Counted from the first letter of the stretch, positions 29,754 through 38,880 are shown. The stretch: 64,000 nt of DNA from Hyphomicrobiales bacterium (GCA_027066315.1 JAMONZ010000094.1:2342-66341); one strand, 5' to 3'. Numbers and translations are program-made. Notes: generated from the sequence alone by a model not told the origin.

Positions 29754-31133
29754 TTGAGCAAGGGTTTAATCATTTCAGCACCCTCTTCTGGTTCAGGTAA
29801 GACCATTGTCACGCTTGGGATTATGCGTGCGCTAAAAAATAGGGGAGTAGATATTAGGCCTGCAAAAACAGGACCTGACTATATTGATAGTTCATATTTG
29901 GCTAAAGCTGCTGGGCGAAAAACTCTAAACCTTGATAGTTTTGCGATGGGAAAAAACCAACTCTTGGGTTTGGCTTCTACTTATGAGGGGGCTGGAAATA
30001 AATCTGATGAATTGCTAATTGTTGAGGGGGTGATGGGTTTGTTTGATGGGGCGGCAGTTAGCAGGGTAACAAATGTAGATCATTTTCCTGTTGGGCAAGG
30101 TTCGAGTGCTGATTTGGCAATAAAAATGGGGTTGCCGGTAATAATAGTAGTTAATTGCTCATCGATGGCGCAATCTATTGGTGCAATTATTTATGGATTT
30201 GCAAATTTTTCTAAAGACATAAATATTACAGGGGTAATTTTAAATTTAGTTGGCTCAAAAAAACATGAAATGATGTTGCGTGATGCATTGTTGCCACTTG
30301 GAATAGAGGTGTTGGGTGCGATTTATCGTGATGATGGTTTGAATATTAAAAGCCGCCACCTTGGTTTGATTTTACCTAATGAAATTGATGATGCAGAAGG
30401 CCTGATTATTAAAGCTGCAAAAATTGTTGAAAAATCGCTTAATCTAGACAGATTGATAGAATTATCAAGCTCAATAAAAAAGGCAAAACCTACCTCTTAT
30501 CTTGCGCCTTTGGGGCAGCATATTGCAATTGCCAAGGATAAGGCATTTGCTTTTATCTATGAGCATTTTTTACTTGGTTGGAAAGAGGCAGGAGCGCAGG
30601 TTAGTTTTTTTTCTCCGCTAGCTAACCAAGCCCCAGATGAAACTGCTGATGCAGTTTTTTTATTGGGAGGCTATCCTGAGTTATTTGGGCAGGAATTAGC
30701 AAATGCTGATATTTTCATGGCTGGTTTAATAAAAGCAAAAGAGAGAGATGCATTAATTTATGGCGAGTGCGGGGGCTTTATGGTTCTGGGTGAGGCACTT
30801 GTTGATGCTAAAGGGGTGGCGCATAAGATGTCTGGCCTGTTGCCAATTACCAGCACAATAAACAAGCCAAAACGGGTGTTAGGGTATAGATATTTAAGTC
30901 ATAAAAGCCCATTGCCTTGGGCAGAAAATTTGGTTGGGCATGAGTTTCACTATTCGTCTTGCTCAAGCAATAATTTATCCCCTCTCTTTGAAGCAACAGA
31001 TGCTAAAGGTGATAAACTACCAGCAATGGGAGCGGTAAATAAAAATGTTATGGGATCGTATGCCCATGTGATTTCTGCCCAACAGATCAAATCTGCCCAA
31101 CTTGCCTATGGGGAAGAAAAAAATGAGTGCTAA
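29754..31133 (+). CDS. cobB: cobyrinic acid a,c-diamide synthase (CobB/CbiA)
   Basis: APSSGSGKTIVTLG P-loop and a C-terminal GATase with YGECGGFM. TTG start. Confidence 0.9.
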   Translation: MSKGLIISAPSSGSGKTIVTLGIMRALKNRGVDIRPAKTGPDYIDSSYLAKAAGRKTLNLDSFAMGKNQLLGLASTYEGAGNKSDELLIVEGVMGLFDGAAVSRVTNVDHFPVGQGSSADLAIKMGLPVIIVVNCSSMAQSIGAIIYGFANFSKDINITGVILNLVGSKKHEMMLRDALLPLGIEVLGAIYRDDGLNIKSRHLGLILPNEIDDAEGLIIKAAKIVEKSLNLDRLIELSSSIKKAKPTSYLAPLGQHIAIAKDKAFAFIYEHFLLGWKEAGAQVSFFSPLANQAPDETADAVFLLGGYPELFGQELANADIFMAGLIKAKERDALIYGECGGFMVLGEALVDAKGVAHKMSGLLPITSTINKPKRVLGYRYLSHKSPLPWAENLVGHEFHYSSCSSNNLSPLFEATDAKGDKLPAMGAVNKNVMGSYAHVISAQQIKSAQLAYGEEKNEC

Positions 31134-32583
31134 ATCTTTAATGTTCATGGGGACAGGCTCAGACGTTGGCAAGTCTTTAATTGTAGCTGGGCTTTGTCGG
31201 GCATTTAAAAACCGTGGGATAAAAGTTGCTCCGTTTAAGCCACAAAATATGTCTAATAATGCTGCGGTGTGTGAGGAAGGCGGGGAAATTGGCAGAGCGC
31301 AAGCCTTGCAGGCTCAGGCCGCAGGATTAAAGCCAGTTACCGCTATGAACCCAATTTTATTAAAACCAGAACATGAAGCTGGGGCGCAAATAATTGTGCG
31401 AGGTGAGCGAGTTAGTTCAATGAGTGCAAAAGAATATTTTGCTACTCGAGAAAAATATATGCCTGATGTGTTGATGGCGTTTGAGGAGTTAAAAAATAAG
31501 TATGATCTGATTTTAGTTGAGGGGGCTGGCTCGGCCTCTGAGGTTAATTTACGGAAAAATGATTTGGCAAATTTTGGCTTTGCACAAGCGGCAAAAGTTC
31601 CAGTGGTTTTAATTGGTGATATTGCTAGGGGTGGGGTAATTGCCTCTGTTATTGGTACGTTTGATGTTGTTGCTAAAAATGATGCTGATATAATTGTGGC
31701 TTCAATTATCAACAAATTCTTGGGTGATAAAAAACTGTTTGAGGCGGGCGCAGATTTTATTTCTGAGCGGGTAAAAAAGCCTGTCTTTGGGCCAATACCA
31801 TTTTTTGTTGATGCTCATAAATTACCTGCAGAAGATGTGTTGGCTTTAGAGCAAAGCGGGGTTGAGCAGAAAGGTGATTTTATTATTTATGTACTACGCC
31901 TTTCTAGAATTTCAAATTTTGATGATTTTGATCCCTTGATTGCAGAGCAAGGGGTTAGGCTAGAATTTATTGAGGCTGGTAGACCTATTCCAAGAGATGC
32001 TGATTTAATAATTATTCCTGGTACAAAAGCGACAATTGCAGACATGAAATATATTTATGAGCAGGGCTGGGATATTGATATTTTAGCGCATGTTCGTTTA
32101 GGTGGTTTTGTGCTTGGAATTTGTGGCGGGTATCAGATTTTGGGGGGAAAAATATCTGACCCATTAGGGATTGAGGGGGAAGTAAAAACCATAAAAGGGC
32201 TAGGTCTGCTTGATATAAAAACTACGCTTAGCGAGAAAAAACGCTTGGATAAAGAGCGAGCAATTGAAATGATTTCTGGTGAGCTAATTGATGGTTTTCA
32301 TATGCATATGGGGATTAGTGAGGGTAAGGATTGCAAACAACCATTTGCTAAAATTGATAAAAAAAATGAGGGTGCGACTAGTGCTAATGGACGGGTGAGC
32401 GGCACTTATTTACATGGGCTTTTTGTTAATGATAAATTTCGCCAGTCCTTTTTGAGGCGGCTTGGTGCAGTGGTTAGTGAGGAATTTAACTATCAAGCAG
32501 ATGTTGAGCGGGTGCTAAACGATTTGGCTAAACATTTAGAAAAACATCTTGATCTTGATGCCTTGTTGGAAATGGCGAAATAA
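31123..32583 (+). CDS. cobQ: cobyric acid synthase
   Basis: MFMGTGSDVGKS...APFKPQNMSNNA and GICGGYQ motifs. The ATG at 31123 overlaps the cobB 3' end. Confidence 0.92.
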   Translation: MSAKSLMFMGTGSDVGKSLIVAGLCRAFKNRGIKVAPFKPQNMSNNAAVCEEGGEIGRAQALQAQAAGLKPVTAMNPILLKPEHEAGAQIIVRGERVSSMSAKEYFATREKYMPDVLMAFEELKNKYDLILVEGAGSASEVNLRKNDLANFGFAQAAKVPVVLIGDIARGGVIASVIGTFDVVAKNDADIIVASIINKFLGDKKLFEAGADFISERVKKPVFGPIPFFVDAHKLPAEDVLALEQSGVEQKGDFIIYVLRLSRISNFDDFDPLIAEQGVRLEFIEAGRPIPRDADLIIIPGTKATIADMKYIYEQGWDIDILAHVRLGGFVLGICGGYQILGGKISDPLGIEGEVKTIKGLGLLDIKTTLSEKKRLDKERAIEMISGELIDGFHMHMGISEGKDCKQPFAKIDKKNEGATSANGRVSGTYLHGLFVNDKFRQSFLRRLGAVVSEEFNYQADVERVLNDLAKHLEKHLDLDALLEMAK

Positions 32584-33545
32584 TGAGCATTTATATTGCT
32601 ATTGTTGCATTAAGTTTTGAGCGGGTTTTTGCCTATCCTATGGTTTTGCAAATGCTCTATCGTCACCCTGTTGAATGGATGGGGAGTTTTATTGCTTGGT
32701 TTGAAGCCCATTATAATCAAGGGTTAGCTATAGAGCGCAAAAGAGCGGGTATGATAATGCTGTTTTTTTTAGTTTTTTTTAGTTTGCTTATTTCTGTTCT
32801 GCTTGTTTATCTAACTAATTTACTGCCCTTTGGGTGGTTTTTTCAAGGGCTTATTGCCTTTACTTTGCTTAGCCAAAATCAATTGGGCAAAGCTGTTAAA
32901 GCTGTGGCAGATGGGCTTGAAATTTCATTGCAAAATGGGCGTGAGGCGGTGAGACATATTGTTGGGCGTGATGTAAAAAACCTTGATGCGGCGGAGGTAT
33001 CTCGTGCAGGCATTGAAACATTGGCTGAAAATGCATCTGATGGATTTATTGCACCATTATTTTATTTGCTTATTTTTGGTTTACCTGGAATTGTTATCTA
33101 TAAGGCCATAAATACCGCTGATTCAATGGTTGGACATAAGAGTGAAAAATATAAAGATTTTGGTTATGCCAGTGCAGTAATTGATGATGTTGTGAATTAT
33201 ATTCCTGCAAGAATTTGTGCGTTGTTATTTGTGCTTGCTGCAATGATTTATAGGCCTGCAAGTTGGCAAGGGGCTATTAGGTCGGTGAAGCAGGATGCAA
33301 AAAAACATGCCTCCCCCAATGCTGGCTGGCCTGAAAGTGCATTTGCTGGTGCGCTTGGTTTTGGGCTTGGGGGGAAACGTAGCTACAAAGGGGAAATGCT
33401 CGATCTGGCGCAAATGGGTGATGGGCGACGAGATTTGGGAGTGAAGGATATAAATTCTTCGCTTGGTTTTTATAATCTAATGAGTGGATTTGTTTTATAT
33501 TTGGTTTTTATTGCTGGTTTTATATTTATGATATTGCAATATTAG
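32583..33545 (+). CDS. cobD: adenosylcobinamide-phosphate synthase (CobD/CbiB)
   Basis: 320-aa membrane protein containing ADSMVGHK and HASPNAGWPE motifs. Confidence 0.9.
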   Translation: MSIYIAIVALSFERVFAYPMVLQMLYRHPVEWMGSFIAWFEAHYNQGLAIERKRAGMIMLFFLVFFSLLISVLLVYLTNLLPFGWFFQGLIAFTLLSQNQLGKAVKAVADGLEISLQNGREAVRHIVGRDVKNLDAAEVSRAGIETLAENASDGFIAPLFYLLIFGLPGIVIYKAINTADSMVGHKSEKYKDFGYASAVIDDVVNYIPARICALLFVLAAMIYRPASWQGAIRSVKQDAKKHASPNAGWPESAFAGALGFGLGGKRSYKGEMLDLAQMGDGRRDLGVKDINSSLGFYNLMSGFVLYLVFIAGFIFMILQY

Positions 33546-33592
33546 GAAAATCTAATATAAAGAAGAAAGATTTACTAACTTAAGAGAAAAAT

Positions 33593-33817
33593 ATGCTAGA
33601 ATTTATTGATGCTACCCCAATATCGATGTTTGTAATTGTTGCACTTGCCCTTGGTCTTGCGCCATTTGTACCCGAGCCGCATTTGTTTGAAAAAACCCGC
33701 ATGTTATTTGCTGGCACGCTTATTAAGCCAATAGATATTTTTGATTTAATTATGCATTTAACGCCAGTTTTAGCACTGATTTTTAAGCTGGCTAGAGTTT
33801 ATATTTTTAAGGCTTAG
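33593..33817 (+). CDS. small hydrophobic protein (74 aa), unknown function
   Basis: Two hydrophobic segments. Only ORF in this gap. No recognisable motif. Confidence 0.4.
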   Translation: MLEFIDATPISMFVIVALALGLAPFVPEPHLFEKTRMLFAGTLIKPIDIFDLIMHLTPVLALIFKLARVYIFKA

Positions 33818-33834
33818 GGTTTGCCATTACTATC

Positions 33835-33866
33835 AAGATTCTTTGCTTTGTTCAAAATGACAAAAG
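33835..33866. repeat. REP/MITE-like element, copy C (half element, upstream of the cobU 3' end)
   Basis: AAGATTCTTTGCTTTGTTCAAAATGACAAAAG aligns with the right arms of copies A and B. Confidence 0.5.
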
Positions 33867-33875
33867 AGACTTAGG

Positions 33876-34406
33876 TTATTTGAGTTTTAGCGGCAGGCCA
33901 GCGGTGATGAAATAAACTTCATTACAAATTTGTGCTAGCTCTTGATGCAAAATCCCTGCTTGGTCAATAAATTTCCTTGCCAAAATATTGGTTGGGGTTA
34001 TGCCAAGTCCAACTTCGTTTGACACTAAAATGACTTTGGCATTGCCTATTTTATTTAATGTGGTTTTTAAATCTTCTATGGCCTTATTCATTTCAATCTT
34101 ATTTAACTCATAAAGGTTTGATAGCCATAAAGTTAGGCAATCAACCAATATAACATCATGAGTTTTTGCACATTTTTGAATTATTTCTCCAAGTGCAACT
34201 TCTTCTTCATAGGTGATAAATTCATCACCTCGACGCTTAATGTGGCTACTTATTCTCTCGCTCATTTCTTTATCAGAAGTTTTTTTTGCGGTGGCGATAT
34301 AGGCAATTTTTTTGTCTTTTTGTAAATTGCTAAGCGCAAGATTTTCAGCAAATTTGCTTTTACCAGAGCGTGCTCCGCCAAGAATAAGAATATGAATATT
34401 TTGCAA
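33876..34406 (-). CDS. cobU: adenosylcobinamide kinase / adenosylcobinamide-phosphate guanylyltransferase
   Basis: ILILGGARSGKSKFAE P-loop and 176 aa. Confidence 0.9.
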   Translation of the reverse strand: MQNIHILILGGARSGKSKFAENLALSNLQKDKKIAYIATAKKTSDKEMSERISSHIKRRGDEFITYEEEVALGEIIQKCAKTHDVILVDCLTLWLSNLYELNKIEMNKAIEDLKTTLNKIGNAKVILVSNEVGLGITPTNILARKFIDQAGILHQELAQICNEVYFITAGLPLKLK

Positions 34407-34526: not shown

Positions 34527-35114
34527 TTGAAAGCCCTTAAGTCTTGTTTTAAGTTATCTAGTTTGTTTTTTTTCATTCTAACTTTGGCGGCTTGTTCTGC
34601 TCTTTCTTTAGGAACTGCATATAAATTACAAAAAATCGACTGGTTAAATGATGATGTAGCAAAAATGACTTTTGCGCTTGATTTGCCTATCTCTTTAAAA
34701 CCCATGAAAAATGAAATTGCTTTAGTGATAAACGCAACTACATCAAAATTTGGTGAACGTAATATTGAAGCAATATTAGAAGAAACAGCAGATTTATCAA
34801 AAGTTGCTAATTTACCCCAACTAGCAAAAGGGCGGGTTTATTATCTATTTTCTATAGCTAAAAATGGTCAGGAAGAAATTGAAGAATTTCAGCAATGGGC
34901 AAAAGGTTTAAAAAAACAGCATGGAGATATTGGTGGTGAACTTGGAATTGGTATAAAGGCAGAATTTTGCCGCACTCAAGATTTTGAAGTGAAGAAAGAA
35001 AAATTTTCTATGTTTATTAGTTTGCCCAGTAAAGTAGAACTTAGCCCATTGATTTCTGGCATGAAAATATCTGACGCAACTAAAGGACAGGCAACAGATA
35101 TTCCTGTTTGTTAA
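34527..35114 (+). CDS. lipoprotein, unknown function (195 aa)
   Basis: Lipobox LTLAACS. TTG start. No recognisable domain. Confidence 0.5.
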   Translation: MKALKSCFKLSSLFFFILTLAACSALSLGTAYKLQKIDWLNDDVAKMTFALDLPISLKPMKNEIALVINATTSKFGERNIEAILEETADLSKVANLPQLAKGRVYYLFSIAKNGQEEIEEFQQWAKGLKKQHGDIGGELGIGIKAEFCRTQDFEVKKEKFSMFISLPSKVELSPLISGMKISDATKGQATDIPVC

Positions 35115-35119
35115 TTTTT

Positions 35120-36610
35120 TTAAAACCCGCCGCCAGTTTTGAAACCACCACTTTTTCTTGAGCCTCTTGAGCTTGAGCGTGGGCGAGGGCTTGAGCGAGA
35201 ACTTGATTTAGGGCGTGAAAACCCTGAACGTGAAGATTGAGCCCAAGGAGAAGAGCTACCTCTTGAGCTTTTAGGCCTGCGGGCAGAGCGGGGTAGGCCA
35301 ATGTTTAAGCCCCAATCAGAAGAGCCAGATCGCCAGCTTTGGCTGCCTTGGAATTGGTTCCAATATACTGCTGCTGAAATTGCACCTGCTAAAAATTCAG
35401 TTAAAAGAGAGCCAGTTAAATTATCTTTTTTAAAGGTAGAGCGGGGGTCATCAAAGCGGGCTTTTTTAAACTCCCATTCAATATCCTCAAGCTCACGCCG
35501 CCTTGTTAAAAGAATTTCTAAGCGATCGTGATGTTGTTTATTTTTAGGCTCTTCTTCTAGAATACGGCTTGTTATATCTTCAATCTTTTCAACCAAAATA
35601 TTATCTTCGTTAGTTGAGGTGATTTGCGCCATTCTCATCATAGATAAAATATTCTGCCCATTAAGGCTTTTGACCAACATGTCTTTAGCTTTTTCAAAAG
35701 CAGGCTCTTGTCCAAGTGCAAGTAGGCGATAGGCTTCTGCTTGCTCATCACGCTGATTTTCTAGATCAAGCAATATTTTATCAATTTTGCTCAAACTGGC
35801 TTGAGCCTTTGTTATTGCTTGGCGAAATGGTGCGCCACCAGCTTTATCTATTGCTTTTCCTTCTAGTTCATCAATTTTATCAATTGCATTTTGTAATAAT
35901 AAATCTTGATGTATGGCATGCTCGTTTAGCCGAAGCGGTATTTCATTTAACATCGCAAAATTTGGTCTGGCCTGATTATAGCCAACTAATTTAGCGACCT
36001 TTTTATCAAGCCATAAAATTAGGTTAGAGCCTTTATAGCTTTTTGTGCCAAATTTTTTATCCCATAAATAGATGAATAATGGATCAGAGCGATAAGGTTT
36101 GCCTTTTTCTTCTTTGTCACTTTTTGCAAGCTCGGTCTTAGCTTTTGCATGCTTTGCTACTTCTTCTAGCGAGCGAATTTCTTTTTTAAGTTGAGAATAA
36201 TTTGGGTCGTCAGAAATTTCTTTGGCAATTTTTTTTGAAAGTGCTTTTAATTCAAGCTGTGCTTTGTCAATTTCGTTTAATTGTTTTCGTCTTAAAGAGA
36301 CATTTTGTGAAATTTTTAAATCAAGATTTTTTAATAATCTCTCAGCTTTATTAAGGCTTATATCATGATTTTCTAACACTTTATGCGCTCTGTTTTGAGC
36401 GGTGAATAACTGATCGCTTAACTCTTTGCGGGCGGTTTCATCAAGCCTTATTGTTGCTAATTGCCTAATAAGGGCGGCTTTTGTTTCGCTTAATTTTGCC
36501 GTTACTTCGGTGCTTCTTGCCAAAAATTTGGCAATCCTAATTTCTTCTTGGCGAATATCAGCAATTGCGTTGTCGAGTGATTTTAATGCCTCAGGTCCAC
36601 TTAATGCCAT
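35120..36610 (-). CDS. coiled-coil protein with Ser/Arg/Gly-rich C-terminal tail (third gene of the triad)
   Basis: 496 aa of long heptad-rich helices. Contains the core motif PYRSDPLFIYLWDKKFGTKSYKG, a hydrophobic segment LLTEFLAGAISAAVYW, and a tail ...SSRSGFSRPKSSSRSSPRPRSSSRGSRKSGGFKTGGGF. Its start lies 1 nt after the upstream stop. Confidence 0.75.
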   Translation of the reverse strand: MALSGPEALKSLDNAIADIRQEEIRIAKFLARSTEVTAKLSETKAALIRQLATIRLDETARKELSDQLFTAQNRAHKVLENHDISLNKAERLLKNLDLKISQNVSLRRKQLNEIDKAQLELKALSKKIAKEISDDPNYSQLKKEIRSLEEVAKHAKAKTELAKSDKEEKGKPYRSDPLFIYLWDKKFGTKSYKGSNLILWLDKKVAKLVGYNQARPNFAMLNEIPLRLNEHAIHQDLLLQNAIDKIDELEGKAIDKAGGAPFRQAITKAQASLSKIDKILLDLENQRDEQAEAYRLLALGQEPAFEKAKDMLVKSLNGQNILSMMRMAQITSTNEDNILVEKIEDITSRILEEEPKNKQHHDRLEILLTRRRELEDIEWEFKKARFDDPRSTFKKDNLTGSLLTEFLAGAISAAVYWNQFQGSQSWRSGSSDWGLNIGLPRSARRPKSSRGSSSPWAQSSRSGFSRPKSSSRSSPRPRSSSRGSRKSGGFKTGGGF

Positions 36611-36611
36611 G

Positions 36612-37550
36612 TTACCACCTCGTCACTGCGCCATCTAAAACAGGCACTGAATATGTGACTTTTAGATAACCATAGGATTTATTGCCAATAATATTTCGCT
36701 GAATAATACCATCGTCAAGTTTGTCTGCCCCGACGCTTTCATAAATATCTTTTGATACTCTAATGCCCCAAATATTTACGTTTTCAATCTGTCCAGTTTC
36801 CTCATTTAAGATAGGTAGAGTAATTGGCCGGTTTTCGCTATCAAGTGCTTCAACTACTAAATAATAATTTGTTGCATCGGTGTTTACTTCTGGAAAAGTC
36901 CAAAATCCAGATTTCTCACCCTCTTTGTTTACAATTCTTAGCTGGTATTCAAGCCTTAAGAGGTCACGCAAATCTGTTAGGGATTTTAGCGCAGATTTAG
37001 CTCTTGCTAGGTTTTCTTCTTTTGAAGCAATAAGGCCTTTTTGCAAGATTTCATCGGCTTGAGTTAGTGCAATTTGTACTTTTGTTTCAGAAAAAATACT
37101 ATCGTAAACTGCCTGCATTTGATTGGGCAGGGTTTGAGATATTTCAATTTTAGCATTTTCTAAATTGGCTTGCTGATTTGGCAAATGGCTAAATTGATAA
37201 TAAGAAGTACCAAGGACTAACGCCAAAATTGAGCCAATTAACCATTTGCCCCATTTTGAACGGCTAATATATATTTTTGCTAAACTAGTAGCAAAACTCT
37301 TAGCTGGAGGGGTATAGATAAAACGATCTTTTGAAAGTGCATCAACCCCCTCTGCTAAAATATAATCTGGCACGTCTATACCCTGAGCGGAGTAAATATC
37401 TCGCAATCTGTCAATTAACAGATCTTTTTTGGCCTCGCCATTTAACTCACGCTCAACCAAATCAGATTGATGGCGTAAAGTATCAACGACATCCATCGCT
37501 AACATTACCTCATCAAGTGGAAGTGGTTGCTTTTTTGATGGTGAGTTCAT
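36612..37550 (-). CDS. single-pass membrane protein (second gene of the triad)
   Basis: 312 aa with the N-terminal motif LDEVMLAMDVVDTLRH, a TM segment WLIGSILALVLGTSYY, a coiled coil, and a beta-rich C-terminal domain. Confidence 0.75.
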   Translation of the reverse strand: MNSPSKKQPLPLDEVMLAMDVVDTLRHQSDLVERELNGEAKKDLLIDRLRDIYSAQGIDVPDYILAEGVDALSKDRFIYTPPAKSFATSLAKIYISRSKWGKWLIGSILALVLGTSYYQFSHLPNQQANLENAKIEISQTLPNQMQAVYDSIFSETKVQIALTQADEILQKGLIASKEENLARAKSALKSLTDLRDLLRLEYQLRIVNKEGEKSGFWTFPEVNTDATNYYLVVEALDSENRPITLPILNEETGQIENVNIWGIRVSKDIYESVGADKLDDGIIQRNIIGNKSYGYLKVTYSVPVLDGAVTRW

Positions 37551-37553
37551 TGT

Positions 37554-38762
37554 TTATTCTTTGGTCTGTTTTTCTTCAACTAACAAGACATTACCCTCGG
37601 CCGCTAATAGAGCCAAACGTTTTTTGCCATCTTCTACGGCATCACGTATTTCGGCTGAATTTTGGGTAGAAAGAGTGCGCATTTCAGTAATAATTGTGCG
37701 AGATTTTTCTTGAAAGCTGATAACTGAATCGAGCAGTTTTTTAACGGCATCGGCACGAATTGTTGGGCCGTAACCTGCCTTAATTGCTTCGGTTTGTACC
37801 TTGTCACCAATTTCTGAAAGTGTTTCTAGCGATTTAGACATTCCCTCTTTCATTGCGTTTAGTGTTTTTGTGCTTTCGTGCAGGCCAAACATACCCGTAA
37901 ACGAAGCAGAAAGTGCAGTTAAAACGGTTTCATTAGTTGAAAAAAACGAAATAGATTGCTGATAAACTCGCTCTTTAGCGTTGGTTGTTTGCATAAGGCG
38001 AGCCATCACAACTTCAGAGGTATGATAAGAAATGGTGAGATTATCTGAAAGATCTTTTGCAATTTGATAACGTCGCTCTTCGCTTTGTAATTCACGTAGC
38101 CGCTCATCTCGTGCCATTTCAAGTCTAGCACGATCTGCCGGAGTTCCCTGTGAGAAACTGCTAAGTTCTTTTGATATTTTACTAAGTGTTTCTTTACGCT
38201 CGTTAAGTTTGTTTTCTGCTGTTTGCAAAACTTCGAGTGCCATTATTTCACTCTGTTTTAACGCACCTCGAAAATCACGATATGCTTCTAAAATTGTAAA
38301 TTCTCTTTGGATTTGATCTTTTGTGTCTTTTGAAACATCAATATAAACATCTCGGATTTTATCAAAGCGAGTAGCAATATCACCACGAGAAACCTTCATC
38401 CATACGTTTGAAGCCCTCTCTAAAATATCAAGTTTGCCATCATCTAATTGGTCAACAAGGCCTTTGGCATCTGAGCGAATAGAATCAAAACCCTTGGTTA
38501 TGTCTTCATATCGCTCACCAACATTCATTGCGGCAATTTGTTCTCGCACAACTTCGTTGAAAATTGAGGCTTGTGACAAGGTGCGCCCAATGAGCAGGAC
38601 TTTATCCTCGTCTAACTGGGTTATTTCTTGTAATAGACCTGTAATTGGCTGTTCTTCAGTTTGCTCTGGCCAAAGCCCAAGGTCACGAACAGCACTCATT
38701 GCTTTATCAAGATATTGTAAAGGCTGGTTTAAAAGATCTTTTGCCATTAAATTATTCCCCAC
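37554..38762 (-). CDS. TelA-like (toxic anion resistance family-like) helical protein (first gene of the triad)
   Basis: 402-aa soluble, all-helical protein whose length and architecture resemble TelA/KlaB. Family membership is not verified by a profile search. Confidence 0.45.
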   Translation of the reverse strand: MGNNLMAKDLLNQPLQYLDKAMSAVRDLGLWPEQTEEQPITGLLQEITQLDEDKVLLIGRTLSQASIFNEVVREQIAAMNVGERYEDITKGFDSIRSDAKGLVDQLDDGKLDILERASNVWMKVSRGDIATRFDKIRDVYIDVSKDTKDQIQREFTILEAYRDFRGALKQSEIMALEVLQTAENKLNERKETLSKISKELSSFSQGTPADRARLEMARDERLRELQSEERRYQIAKDLSDNLTISYHTSEVVMARLMQTTNAKERVYQQSISFFSTNETVLTALSASFTGMFGLHESTKTLNAMKEGMSKSLETLSEIGDKVQTEAIKAGYGPTIRADAVKKLLDSVISFQEKSRTIITEMRTLSTQNSAEIRDAVEDGKKRLALLAAEGNVLLVEEKQTKE

Positions 38763-38880
38763 TAAATTATTTTTATTTAAATCACTATTTCAAGTTTTAT
38801 ATATAGGTGCAATTGTAACTCATTCAATAAATGACTATTTTTTTATTTGATGCCAAAAAGTCGCAATATTTGGAGAAAAG

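Follow-up and report, generated by a model that had tools for sequence, protein, structure and literature searches.

What does a three-gene operon do when none of its products has an assignable function? This question is raised by a locus on the minus strand of a 64,000-nucleotide (nt) stretch of DNA from a Hyphomicrobiales bacterium (GCA_027066315.1, JAMONZ010000094.1:2342–66341), referred to here as the window. An earlier note on this DNA had described three minus-strand open reading frames (ORFs), ORF-A, ORF-B, and ORF-C, as one translationally coupled unit. All three were recovered by ORF listing at the coordinates and with the spacing that it gave, with gaps of 3 nt between A and B (37551–37553) and 1 nt between B and C (36611), and every one of the peptide motifs that it quoted (LDEVMLAMDVVDTLRH, WLIGSILALVLGTSYY, PYRSDPLFIYLWDKKFGTKSYKGSNLILWLD, and LLTEFLAGAISAAVYW) was located in the translations (Table 1). 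We propose, with a probability of about 0.5, that the triad encodes a membrane-associated TelA-type envelope-integrity complex, as suggested by sequence comparison, predicted models, and analogy.

The 80 best loci were compared by tblastn with all three proteins, followed by ORF extraction. The order A-B-C was kept across Alphaproteobacteria in 74 of the 74 informative, complete loci, each from a different species, with median gaps of 29 nt between A and B and 4 nt between B and C; such regularity is well beyond chance. These loci span Devosiaceae, Mesorhizobium, Methylobacteriaceae, Beijerinckiaceae, Pleomorphomonas, Reyranella, Micropepsaceae, Pelagibius, and Rhodobiaceae. Reyranella, a seeming exception, has a C ortholog after all, which was overlooked by tblastn. 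At another locus (L073), the C ortholog contains an in-frame stop at the coordinates used here. A scan of one genome per species with a single query pattern found relatives of ORF-A in at least 574 species. A word index gave more than 8000 matches to ORF-A, and an exhaustive search gave 603 clusters at 50% identity. Identity to the window proteins across the loci was 65–91%, 37–76%, and 25–67% (tblastn) for A, B, and C, respectively, A being the most conserved member of the triad and C the fastest-evolving. Between the window and Maritalea, Cucumibacter, Devosia, and Pelagibacterium, A is 80–81% identical, and the neighbour genes (CoxG, transporter components, and Bmp) are 48–73% identical. 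Clustering of the flanking genes revealed no fourth conserved gene, the top flank family being present in 7 of 35 non-Devosiaceae loci; the triad is therefore autonomous and not a piece of a larger cluster. The spacing, the invariable gene order, and the lack of a recurring flank gene support the coupled, co-conserved three-gene unit proposed earlier. Judged from these comparisons, A, B, and C are one ancient self-contained module, which is probably co-transcribed with coupled translation.

The earlier note had likened ORF-A to the TelA/KlaB family. No match to ORF-A was obtained in Pfam, NCBIfam, PADLOC, PHROGs, or PDB sequences, a search of PDB sequences with the A profile was also empty, and the Pfam TelA profile PF05816, run on ORF-A, gave no match even at E ≤ 1. 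On the other hand, a likeness to TelA was detected at the fold level. The AlphaFold2 (AF2) model of ORF-A, based on an alignment of 83 sequences, is all-helical, in agreement with the earlier description (predicted local distance difference test score [pLDDT] 79; predicted template-modelling score [pTM] 0.74). It comprises a long helical hairpin (H124–196/H203–293), a C-terminal helix (H332–396), and a low-confidence stretch at residues 288–328 (pLDDT < 50). Foldseek comparison of this model with BFVD (predicted viral structures), i.e., of a predicted model with predicted models, yielded four matches with E ≤ 0.001, all about 365 amino acids (aa) and full-length, and three of the four are named tellurite or toxic-anion resistance protein. 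Their E-values were 7e-5 to 4e-4, with a probability of 1.00, 361–414 aligned columns, template-modelling (TM) scores of up to 0.52, and about 10–15% identity.

A weak sequence signal was also observed. A genuine TelA profile was made from KlaB of pBS228 (PF05816, 3e-86) and six diverse plasmid TelA proteins. Alignment of the A profile with this seven-sequence profile by hhalign gave a score of 25.5 (P 0.021, probability 2%), was collinear over 336 columns, and lined up the RF(D) and (F/I)GR motifs. It ranked first against 42 nulls (reversed and 40 block-shuffled), for which the maximum score was 24.5 over at most 190 columns. With the hidden Markov model (HMM) of the A family, three of the seven TelA proteins reached 14.5, 8.1, and 6.9 bits, and the best of 328 shuffles reached 5.1. 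Single-sequence hhalign of A against KlaB was negative, with a probability of 0.25%. ORF-A is best described as a remote protein of the predicted TelA fold outside Pfam TelA as now defined; the likeness claimed earlier holds for the fold, with a weak sequence signal, and fails for PF05816 membership.

ORF-A shares with the TelA/KlaB/YaaN/YceH family a length of about 360–400 aa, a soluble, all-helical, cysteine-poor character, and the lack of a catalytic motif, in addition to the full-length fold match, the collinear profile alignment, and the weak HMM signal. An adjacent membrane-protein partner is also common to both, and ORF-B with its transmembrane segment adjoins A at every locus. The identities of the partners differ, being DUF6384 and the C family in the triad and XpaC, KlaA, or KlaC for TelA; the Pfam scan of the triad gave no match to XpaC (PF10112). 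A is also far more conserved and vertically inherited in alphaproteobacteria. Whereas the TelA family has been linked to tellurite, nisin, and daptomycin, ORF-A is likened to it by sequence and predicted fold. A paper on the sigmaW regulon reportedly bears on the link of TelA to envelope stress. Our literature search found nothing on the structure or mechanism of TelA. TelA is induced by, or aids tolerance of, envelope-active agents, is always paired with a membrane protein, and has a mechanism that is unexplained in the literature (PMC6811118, PMC12791056). In Enterococcus faecium, the phenotype of an xpaC deletion depends on intact telA (PMC6811118).

The most hydrophobic 18-mer of ORF-A has a mean hydrophobicity (H) of 0.43 on the Eisenberg scale, the maximum in a 19-residue Kyte-Doolittle window is 0.84, and neither a hydrophobic head nor a beta-tongue is present. 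A is a soluble helical protein that is more conserved than its neighbour genes. The consensus of its best-conserved segment (residues ~281–321) is FFSTNETV.TALSASFTG.FGLHEST.TLNAMK.G..KSLE in the alignment. This segment largely coincides with the worst-predicted stretch of the model, and the top helical hydrophobic moment in ORF-A was found at residues 301–318 (muH 0.50). The segment is a candidate interaction or conformational-switch region. From the identity of about 80%, compared with 48–64% for neighbours, and the approximately twofold transcript level of the phage counterpart g190 described below, we infer that A is an abundant, constrained subunit.

The second protein gave a clear family assignment. 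The earlier note had found no assignable function in the triad, and indeed none is given by Pfam, NCBIfam, PADLOC, PHROGs, or PDB sequences. ORF-B, which had been left unassigned, is instead a full-length member of DUF6384 (PF19911), with an E-value of 1.5e-125 and a score of 418.9 bits (cut-off 25), residues 6–312 covering profile positions 2–308 of 308; the family itself has no known function. All of the 4271 ORF-B homologs carry PF19911, and B lies directly after A in all alphaproteobacterial loci examined. Its length ranges from 312 to 512 aa via insertion in the external helical region. In an alignment of 22 orthologs, among them versions from the candidate phyla radiation (CPR), ORF-B is laid out as an N-domain of about 90 residues, a Lys/Arg cluster, a hydrophobic helix, a helical region that varies in length, and a C-domain. 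Most of the invariant or near-invariant columns (D20, V21, L36, R50, G57, R97, and others) are in the N-domain, and the CPR version keeps the N-domain motif as 'MSMMDVVD'. The single hydrophobic span described earlier was recovered as the most hydrophobic 18-mer of B (mean H 0.61), and all 22 aligned orthologs have a hydrophobic segment at the matching position. A Lys/Arg cluster (KIYISRSKWGKW) lies just ahead of this helix and, by the positive-inside rule, points to an N-in, C-out topology, in which the N-terminus would be cytoplasmic and the C-terminus extracytoplasmic. Conservation of the C-domain extends over the alphaproteobacterial, CPR, and phage versions, and the domain ends in an invariant Trp. 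No literature on DUF6384 was found, and the Pfam family has neither an assigned function nor a described genomic context; in every context examined here, DUF6384 adjoins A-type and C-type genes.

For ORF-C, searches of Pfam, NCBIfam, PADLOC, PHROGs, and PDB did not yield a match, and a Pfam scan of 58 orthologs was also empty. Its AF2 model (pLDDT 86, pTM 0.79) contains long helices up to about residue 383, short but confidently predicted helices at residues 401–407 and 413–423, and disorder from residue 430. The coiled coil of about 400 aa followed by a tail of about 70 aa in the earlier description agrees with this model, in which the tail has 71 residues. The Foldseek matches of ORF-C were generic coiled coils only (Rad50, MukB, SMC arms, dynein stalks, and chemoreceptors), none with E ≤ 0.001. 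A relationship of ORF-C to A was considered and rejected, the hhalign match between them being local only (27 over 42 columns). ORF-C is a new family without a Pfam model, predicted to form a long antiparallel coiled coil. The length of the C orthologs is nearly fixed at 460–528 aa, and C always follows B.

Conservation in ORF-C is concentrated at particular positions of a core (K158, K169, P172-Y173, D176, L178-F179, Y181-L182-W183, T189, Y192, D202, A206, R215, N217, E223-I224-P225, R227, and H231). L182 is invariant throughout the alphaproteobacterial, gammaproteobacterial, CPR, plasmid, and phage versions, in which F179, Y181, G188, D202, and A206 are nearly so. D336 of a TP..DD motif is invariant in every lineage aligned. 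The hydrophobic stretch noted earlier behind the coiled coil is present in the window protein, where its mean H is 0.57, whereas the medians in the 58 orthologs are a mean H of 0.38 and 4.5 charged residues. These charged residues and the lower hydrophobicity argue against a transmembrane helix; the segment, more likely amphipathic or packed than membrane-spanning, is probably a peripheral membrane-binding or packing element. Of the 71 tail residues, 23 are Ser, 12 Arg, 11 Gly, and 6 Pro. Orthologs differ in the length and sequence of this tail, and its terminus, F-[KR]-T-G-G-x-F, is near-invariant in alphaproteobacteria. In the CPR, gammaproteobacterial, plasmid, and phage homologs, the terminus reads GG-aromatic-x-[TS]-x-x-[FL].

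The module was also found outside Alphaproteobacteria. In relatives of A with 30–39% identity, one of which is from Candidatus Yonathbacteria (CPR), A is divergent from a DUF6384 gene (406–512 aa), which is followed by a gene for 470–486 aa. A relative with 29% identity belongs to a collinear triad adjoining a Band_7 gene, and another with 48% identity to a collinear triad beside class-I adenylate cyclase and PcnB, an apparent gammaproteobacterial context. The third genes of these remote systems are true C homologs, with the core LFMYL...FGT...LD..VA and a tail ending in ...TGGGF or ...SGGF, and the three-way linkage persists through the switch to a divergent orientation of A versus B-C in CPR and other remote genomes. 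The Band_7/SPFH gene (flotillin or stomatin-type; L095:3839–4789), a single case, lies directly upstream of the 29%-identity triad and is divergent from it; SPFH proteins likewise organise membrane domains. By tblastn, A was found on 11 plasmids, namely those of Microvirga, Bradyrhizobium, and Rhizobium leguminosarum, the Methylorubrum extorquens AM1 megaplasmid, and seven Pseudomonas megaplasmids. On the Pseudomonas aeruginosa PA83 megaplasmid (L098), A, DUF6384, and a hypothetical gene stand in a row.

In the Yersinia jumbo phage phiR1-37 (L097:4965–8796), g190 corresponds to A (39% identity), g191 to DUF6384 (5e-26), and g192 is C-like. The module is rare in viral contigs, the five loci found being that of phiR1-37 and four at contig ends. 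According to RNA sequencing of phiR1-37, g190 reached about 33–42 thousand normalised reads at all three time points, and g191 and g192 reached 14–16 and 16–24 thousand, respectively, with neighbour genes at about 3–7 thousand (PMC4848604 supplement). By these values, A is expressed about twice as highly as B and C, and the triad 5–10 times as highly as its neighbours and constitutively. The supplement gives g190–g192 no temporal (early/late) class, and the main text of that paper is silent on them (PMC4848604). In the phiR1-37 annotation, g190–g192 are not among the listed virion proteins. Database names of A homologs include 'merozoite surface protein 3b' in clinical Pseudomonas megaplasmids and 'cell surface protein' in alphaproteobacteria, and some ORF-C homologs are named 'chromosome segregation ATPase' or 'Chromosome partition protein Smc'. 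The searches made here provided no support for any of these names.

The nearest known arrangement is the kilA operon (klaA-klaB/telA-klaC), which, like the triad, consists of three tightly packed genes, includes a TelA-fold protein and a membrane protein, and occurs on large plasmids. However, its gene order is unlike that of the triad, and it has two TelA paralogs (PF05816: KlaA 1.7e-10, KlaB 3e-86), whereas the triad has only A. KlaC was rejected as a relative of B or C, with hhalign probabilities of 0.05% and 0.4%, respectively, and ORF-C was rejected as a second TelA paralog, with a probability of 0.2%. With KlaC related to neither B nor C, and C not related to TelA, the triad is not a kilA operon. 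The earlier view that at most the TelA-like member would be common to both is borne out by these comparisons. In the triad, a TelA-fold protein is at the centre of a different partnership. In pBS228, KlaA (L083:1520–2293) is a shortened TelA paralog with a faint SPFH/Band_7 match (0.0044), and three further plasmid TelA genes (L084, L085, and L099) have a klaA-like gene upstream and a gene for about 300–330 aa downstream. The kilA layout is a conserved triad of its own, distinct from A-B-C.

If the triad forms an envelope-integrity complex, A, B, and C would assemble at the cytoplasmic face of the inner membrane. Membrane association is suggested by the transmembrane segment of DUF6384 in all orthologs and by the Arg/Trp/Gly tail and hydrophobic segment of C. 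B would serve as the membrane anchor and transmembrane link; its N-domain, the most conserved part, would dock A and/or C, and its external domain may report on or bind something in the envelope. C would be an elongated scaffold or tether, held at the membrane through its amphipathic segment and Arg/Trp/Gly-rich tail, and its C-terminal peptide would plug into a partner. A would be the abundant working subunit, which preserves or reorganises the membrane under envelope stress, as proposed for TelA with XpaC and KlaC, and its action may use oligomerisation or a conformational switch in residues ~288–328. The copies on megaplasmids and in the jumbo phage presumably keep the host membrane competent.

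No enzyme chemistry would be involved in such a complex, as suggested by two negative results: a motif scan for Walker A/B, GxSxG, HExxH, and CxxC found none of them in the three proteins, as the earlier note had also held, and A, B, and C gave no match to enzyme families in Pfam, NCBIfam, or PADLOC. The logic, as an analogy and not a homology, is like that of PspA/Vipp1/LiaH with the anchors PspB/C and LiaI, in which an abundant soluble helical protein is recruited to the inner membrane by a dedicated partner and protects membrane integrity. No sequence or fold match to PspA_IM30 was found in the Pfam scan of the triad or in the Foldseek search of ORF-A against PDB. The 1,205 residues of A, B, and C include no cysteine. 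At the family level, the cysteine contents are 0.16%, 0.06%, and 0.03% for A, B, and C, respectively, compared with 0.74% for the long ORFs of the window and 0.15% for genuine TelA. Coiled-coil composition may account for this depletion, as may selection to function under thiol-reactive or oxidative stress.

Several results weigh against a TelA-type envelope-stress complex. PF05816 matched none of the 83 diverse A relatives at E ≤ 0.01, with the control KlaB at 3.2e-86; since the profile is blind to A and to these relatives, A falls outside Pfam TelA in its present form. The hhalign probability of the A-TelA alignment is just 2%, the reverse test of a thin TelA HMM against the A family gave no signal, and the comparison of A with the unrelated C reached a score of 27 over 42 columns. 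Because C scores as high locally, the sequence evidence by itself is not decisive for the TelA link, which depends mainly on matching a predicted fold with predicted folds. Since the mechanism of TelA is itself unexplained, to say that A works like TelA transfers little. The function and the A-B-C contacts are drawn from sequence, models, and analogy, and the topology of B and the membrane binding of C are likewise deduced. No EcfG, sigma32, sigma54, CtrA, or LexA motif was shared upstream of A across the loci; with no EcfG- or sigma32-type promoter in common, a stress-induced system is not favoured.

The strong vertical conservation of A could equally fit a constitutive structural or morphogenetic role. 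A would then form a membrane-proximal polymer or lattice, B would tie it to the wall or periplasm, and C would act as a spacer or ruler, the whole organising envelope growth, membrane domains, or cell shape in alphaproteobacteria. We regard this main rival as unlikely overall, although it agrees with the housekeeping-like conservation of A (65–70% identity when distant alphaproteobacterial families are compared and about 80% within Devosiaceae, with neighbours at 48–64%), with the stable and syntenic inheritance, and with the lack of a common stress-type promoter. The nearly fixed length of the long coiled coil C (460–528 aa), the conserved external domain of B, and the constitutive, high expression in the phage are also in line with it. 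However, the copies on megaplasmids, in CPR, and in a lytic jumbo phage are unexpected for a lineage-specific apparatus, and detection in at least 574 species, when alphaproteobacterial species number many thousands, does not show universality. Moreover, A has no known relatives apart from the TelA proteins, and these act as accessory factors in stress or resistance.

The same mobile copies bring up a module for host manipulation or conflict, acting in kil-like growth control, superinfection exclusion, or abortive infection and other anti-phage defence, with B as the sensor of a trigger and A as the effector that would then damage or depolarise the membrane. The TelA paralogs KlaA and KlaB are encoded in the kilA 'host-killing' operon of RK2, and the copies on Pseudomonas, rhizobial, and Methylorubrum megaplasmids and in the jumbo phage would suit a mobile module. 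The PDB fold neighbours of A are mostly ClyA-family pore formers, below significance. The dependence of the E. faecium xpaC phenotype on telA suggests an effector restrained by its partner (PMC6811118). However, in PADLOC-DB 2.0 (2023) the triad had matches at noise level only (E 0.002–0.55, 7–16 bits), the flanks in the window contain no defence or mobile genes, and only five viral loci were found, four of them at contig ends. The vertical, syntenic inheritance under strong purifying selection in alphaproteobacteria is unlike that of defence islands, no segment of A is strongly hydrophobic (maximum mean H 0.43), and the phage expresses the triad constitutively and highly without an evident lysis role. 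These points make a conflict module improbable.

Two further readings are essentially excluded. One, to which the annotation 'cell surface protein' might point, is that the triad encodes a secreted alpha-helical pore-forming toxin in three parts, like ClyA/AhlABC/Nhe; this is very improbable. Like the ClyA family (ClyA, MakA, Hbl-B, NheA, AhlB/C, SmhB, and YaxB), A is an elongated helical bundle on a long hairpin, three genes are adjacent as in the three-gene operons of some members, and about 30 of the top 50 PDB fold matches of A were ClyA-family toxins; moreover, ClyA itself has no signal peptide. However, the best of these matches had an E-value of 0.014, none reached E ≤ 0.001, and the TM scores were 0.2–0.4. 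The components of tripartite toxins are all paralogs with the ClyA fold, whereas here B is DUF6384 and C an unrelated coiled coil; A lacks the hydrophobic head and beta-tongue, no signal peptide is visible in A or C and no other evidence of secretion was obtained, and the conservation is housekeeping-like in free-living marine and soil alphaproteobacteria and extends to CPR. Still less credible is an operon acting on DNA with ORF-C as an SMC/Rad50-like chromosome-partition protein, for which the database names of C homologs, the best PDB fold matches of C (Rad50, MukB, and SMC arms), and the Arg-rich tail might speak, because ORF-C has no Walker A or B motif, no SMC_N, AAA, or other ATPase Pfam domain was found in it or in 58 orthologs, the fold matches cover generic coiled-coil arms only (TM 0.1–0.2, none with E ≤ 0.001), ORF-C is accompanied by a membrane protein and a TelA-like protein, and the Arg richness is not conserved, distant orthologs having Gly/Ser/Asp tails.

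The start of ORF-A and the region upstream of it were revised. The ATG at 38747, and not the GTG at 38762, is most likely the start codon because the identical database protein has 397 aa, a Shine-Dalgarno sequence (GGGGA) lies upstream of this ATG, and the promoter-like site would overlap the GTG start. This site, the best promoter-like one near ORF-A on the minus strand, is TTGAAA-16-AATAAT at 38793–38766 (sigma70-like, match 10/12). The intergenic region upstream of the triad, described in the earlier note, therefore has bounds of 38748–38880 instead of 38763–38880. Between ORF-A and the CoxG-like gene, a TTTTGGCATCA element (38848–38858) and CAATTG (38810–38815) were found, both of which recur upstream of A in relatives. 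CAATTG occurs there in 38 of 82 loci, compared with a background of 4%, mostly at −63 to −88, and TTTT[GC]GCA[CT]CA in 33 of 82 loci, compared with a background of 0.4%. These elements may be an operator or promoter of A or of the CoxG-like gene; no known regulator motif fits either of them.

Table 1. Coordinates of the triad, its protein segments, and neighbouring genes in the window.
Feature	Position	Strand	Description
ORF-A	37554..38747	minus	397 aa; alternative GTG start at 38762 gives 402 aa
ORF-B	36612..37550	minus	312 aa, DUF6384 (PF19911)
ORF-C	35120..36610	minus	496 aa, predicted coiled coil and tail
Upstream intergenic region	38748..38880	minus	Common to ORF-A and the divergent CoxG-like gene
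ORF-A residues ~281–321	37785..37907	minus	Best-conserved sequence; covers 281–287 and most of 288–328
ORF-B residues ~10–97	37260..37523	minus	Conserved N-domain: M.AMDVVDTLRH ... RLR.IY..QG ... ALKESRF.Y.PP
ORF-B residues ~103–120	37191..37244	minus	Predicted single transmembrane helix (WLIGSILALVLGTSYYQF)
ORF-B residues ~198–312	36615..36959	minus	Conserved C-domain: Y.L.IV ... YYLVVEA.D..G ... NEE.G ... WG.RV ... DK.DDGI ... terminal W
ORF-C residues 158–232	35915..36139	minus	Conserved core (58- and 112-sequence alignments)
ORF-C residues 398–423	35342..35419	minus	Hydrophobic/amphipathic segment (LTGSLLTEFLAGAISAAVYW); G409 invariant within alphaproteobacteria
ORF-C residues 426–496	35123..35335	minus	Disordered Ser/Arg/Gly/Pro/Trp tail, pLDDT < 50
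ORF-C residues 490–496	35123..35143	minus	C-terminal motif F-K-T-G-G-G-F (alignment)
CobB/CbiA-type a,c-diamide synthase	29754–31133		
CobQ-type cobyric acid synthase	31102–32583		Overlaps the preceding gene by 32 nt
CobD/CbiB	32583–33545		
CobU	33876–34406	minus	

In the window, a 195-aa ORF on the plus strand (34527–35114) converges on ORF-C, with 5 nt between the stop codons; it has a lipoprotein-like N-terminus (…LTLAACSAL…) and no Pfam match. A weak homolog (28–38% identity) is present at the matching position in Maritalea and Cucumibacter, and clustering of the flanks of 35 loci found none adjoining the triad outside Devosiaceae. A cobalamin-biosynthesis cluster (29754–34406) lies beside the triad and does not accompany it in other taxa. 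The GC content of the window is 34–44%, unusually low for relatives of Devosia and Maritalea. The GC skew is strongly positive almost throughout, with a rising cumulative skew, and is approximately zero only at 34–38 kb, the part with the minus-strand genes of the triad and CobU. From this pattern, the window seems to lie on one replichore with nearly all genes co-oriented, the triad being among the few opposed.

A TelA-fold protein with a membrane partner is already known in kind, and conserved hypothetical operons are common. New here are the A and C families, which have no Pfam model, and, as judged from gene neighbourhoods, a genomic context for DUF6384 with two new partner families. TelA-type proteins are widespread and recur in studies of envelope stress, bacteriocins, daptomycin, and tellurite, with their mechanism unexplained. 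The triad appears to be a distinct, strongly conserved branch of the TelA fold with two obligate partners, one of them membrane-crossing, and thus offers a defined system to reconstitute, in which the N-domain of B, the conserved unpredicted segment of A, and the core and C-terminal GGF peptide of C are the elements to probe. The copies on clinical Pseudomonas megaplasmids and the high expression in a jumbo phage suggest an effect on host physiology that is exploited by mobile elements. A bolder reading, tentative and in our view doubtful, is that the triad is an ancient, undescribed machine for membrane maintenance or remodelling in Alphaproteobacteria, CPR, some Gammaproteobacteria, megaplasmids, and a jumbo phage. 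In it, A, a member of the TelA superfamily and a cytoplasmic cousin, in structure, of the ClyA-type pore formers, would switch from a soluble bundle to a membrane oligomer under the control of a bitopic DUF6384 sensor and a coiled-coil tether docking by its GGF peptide. If true, this would give the first mechanistic frame for the TelA superfamily, whose function has lacked an explanation since the studies of kilA and tellurite in the 1990s. The distribution of the module is unusually broad and stable, and it may provide a tractable entry into the TelA superfamily.

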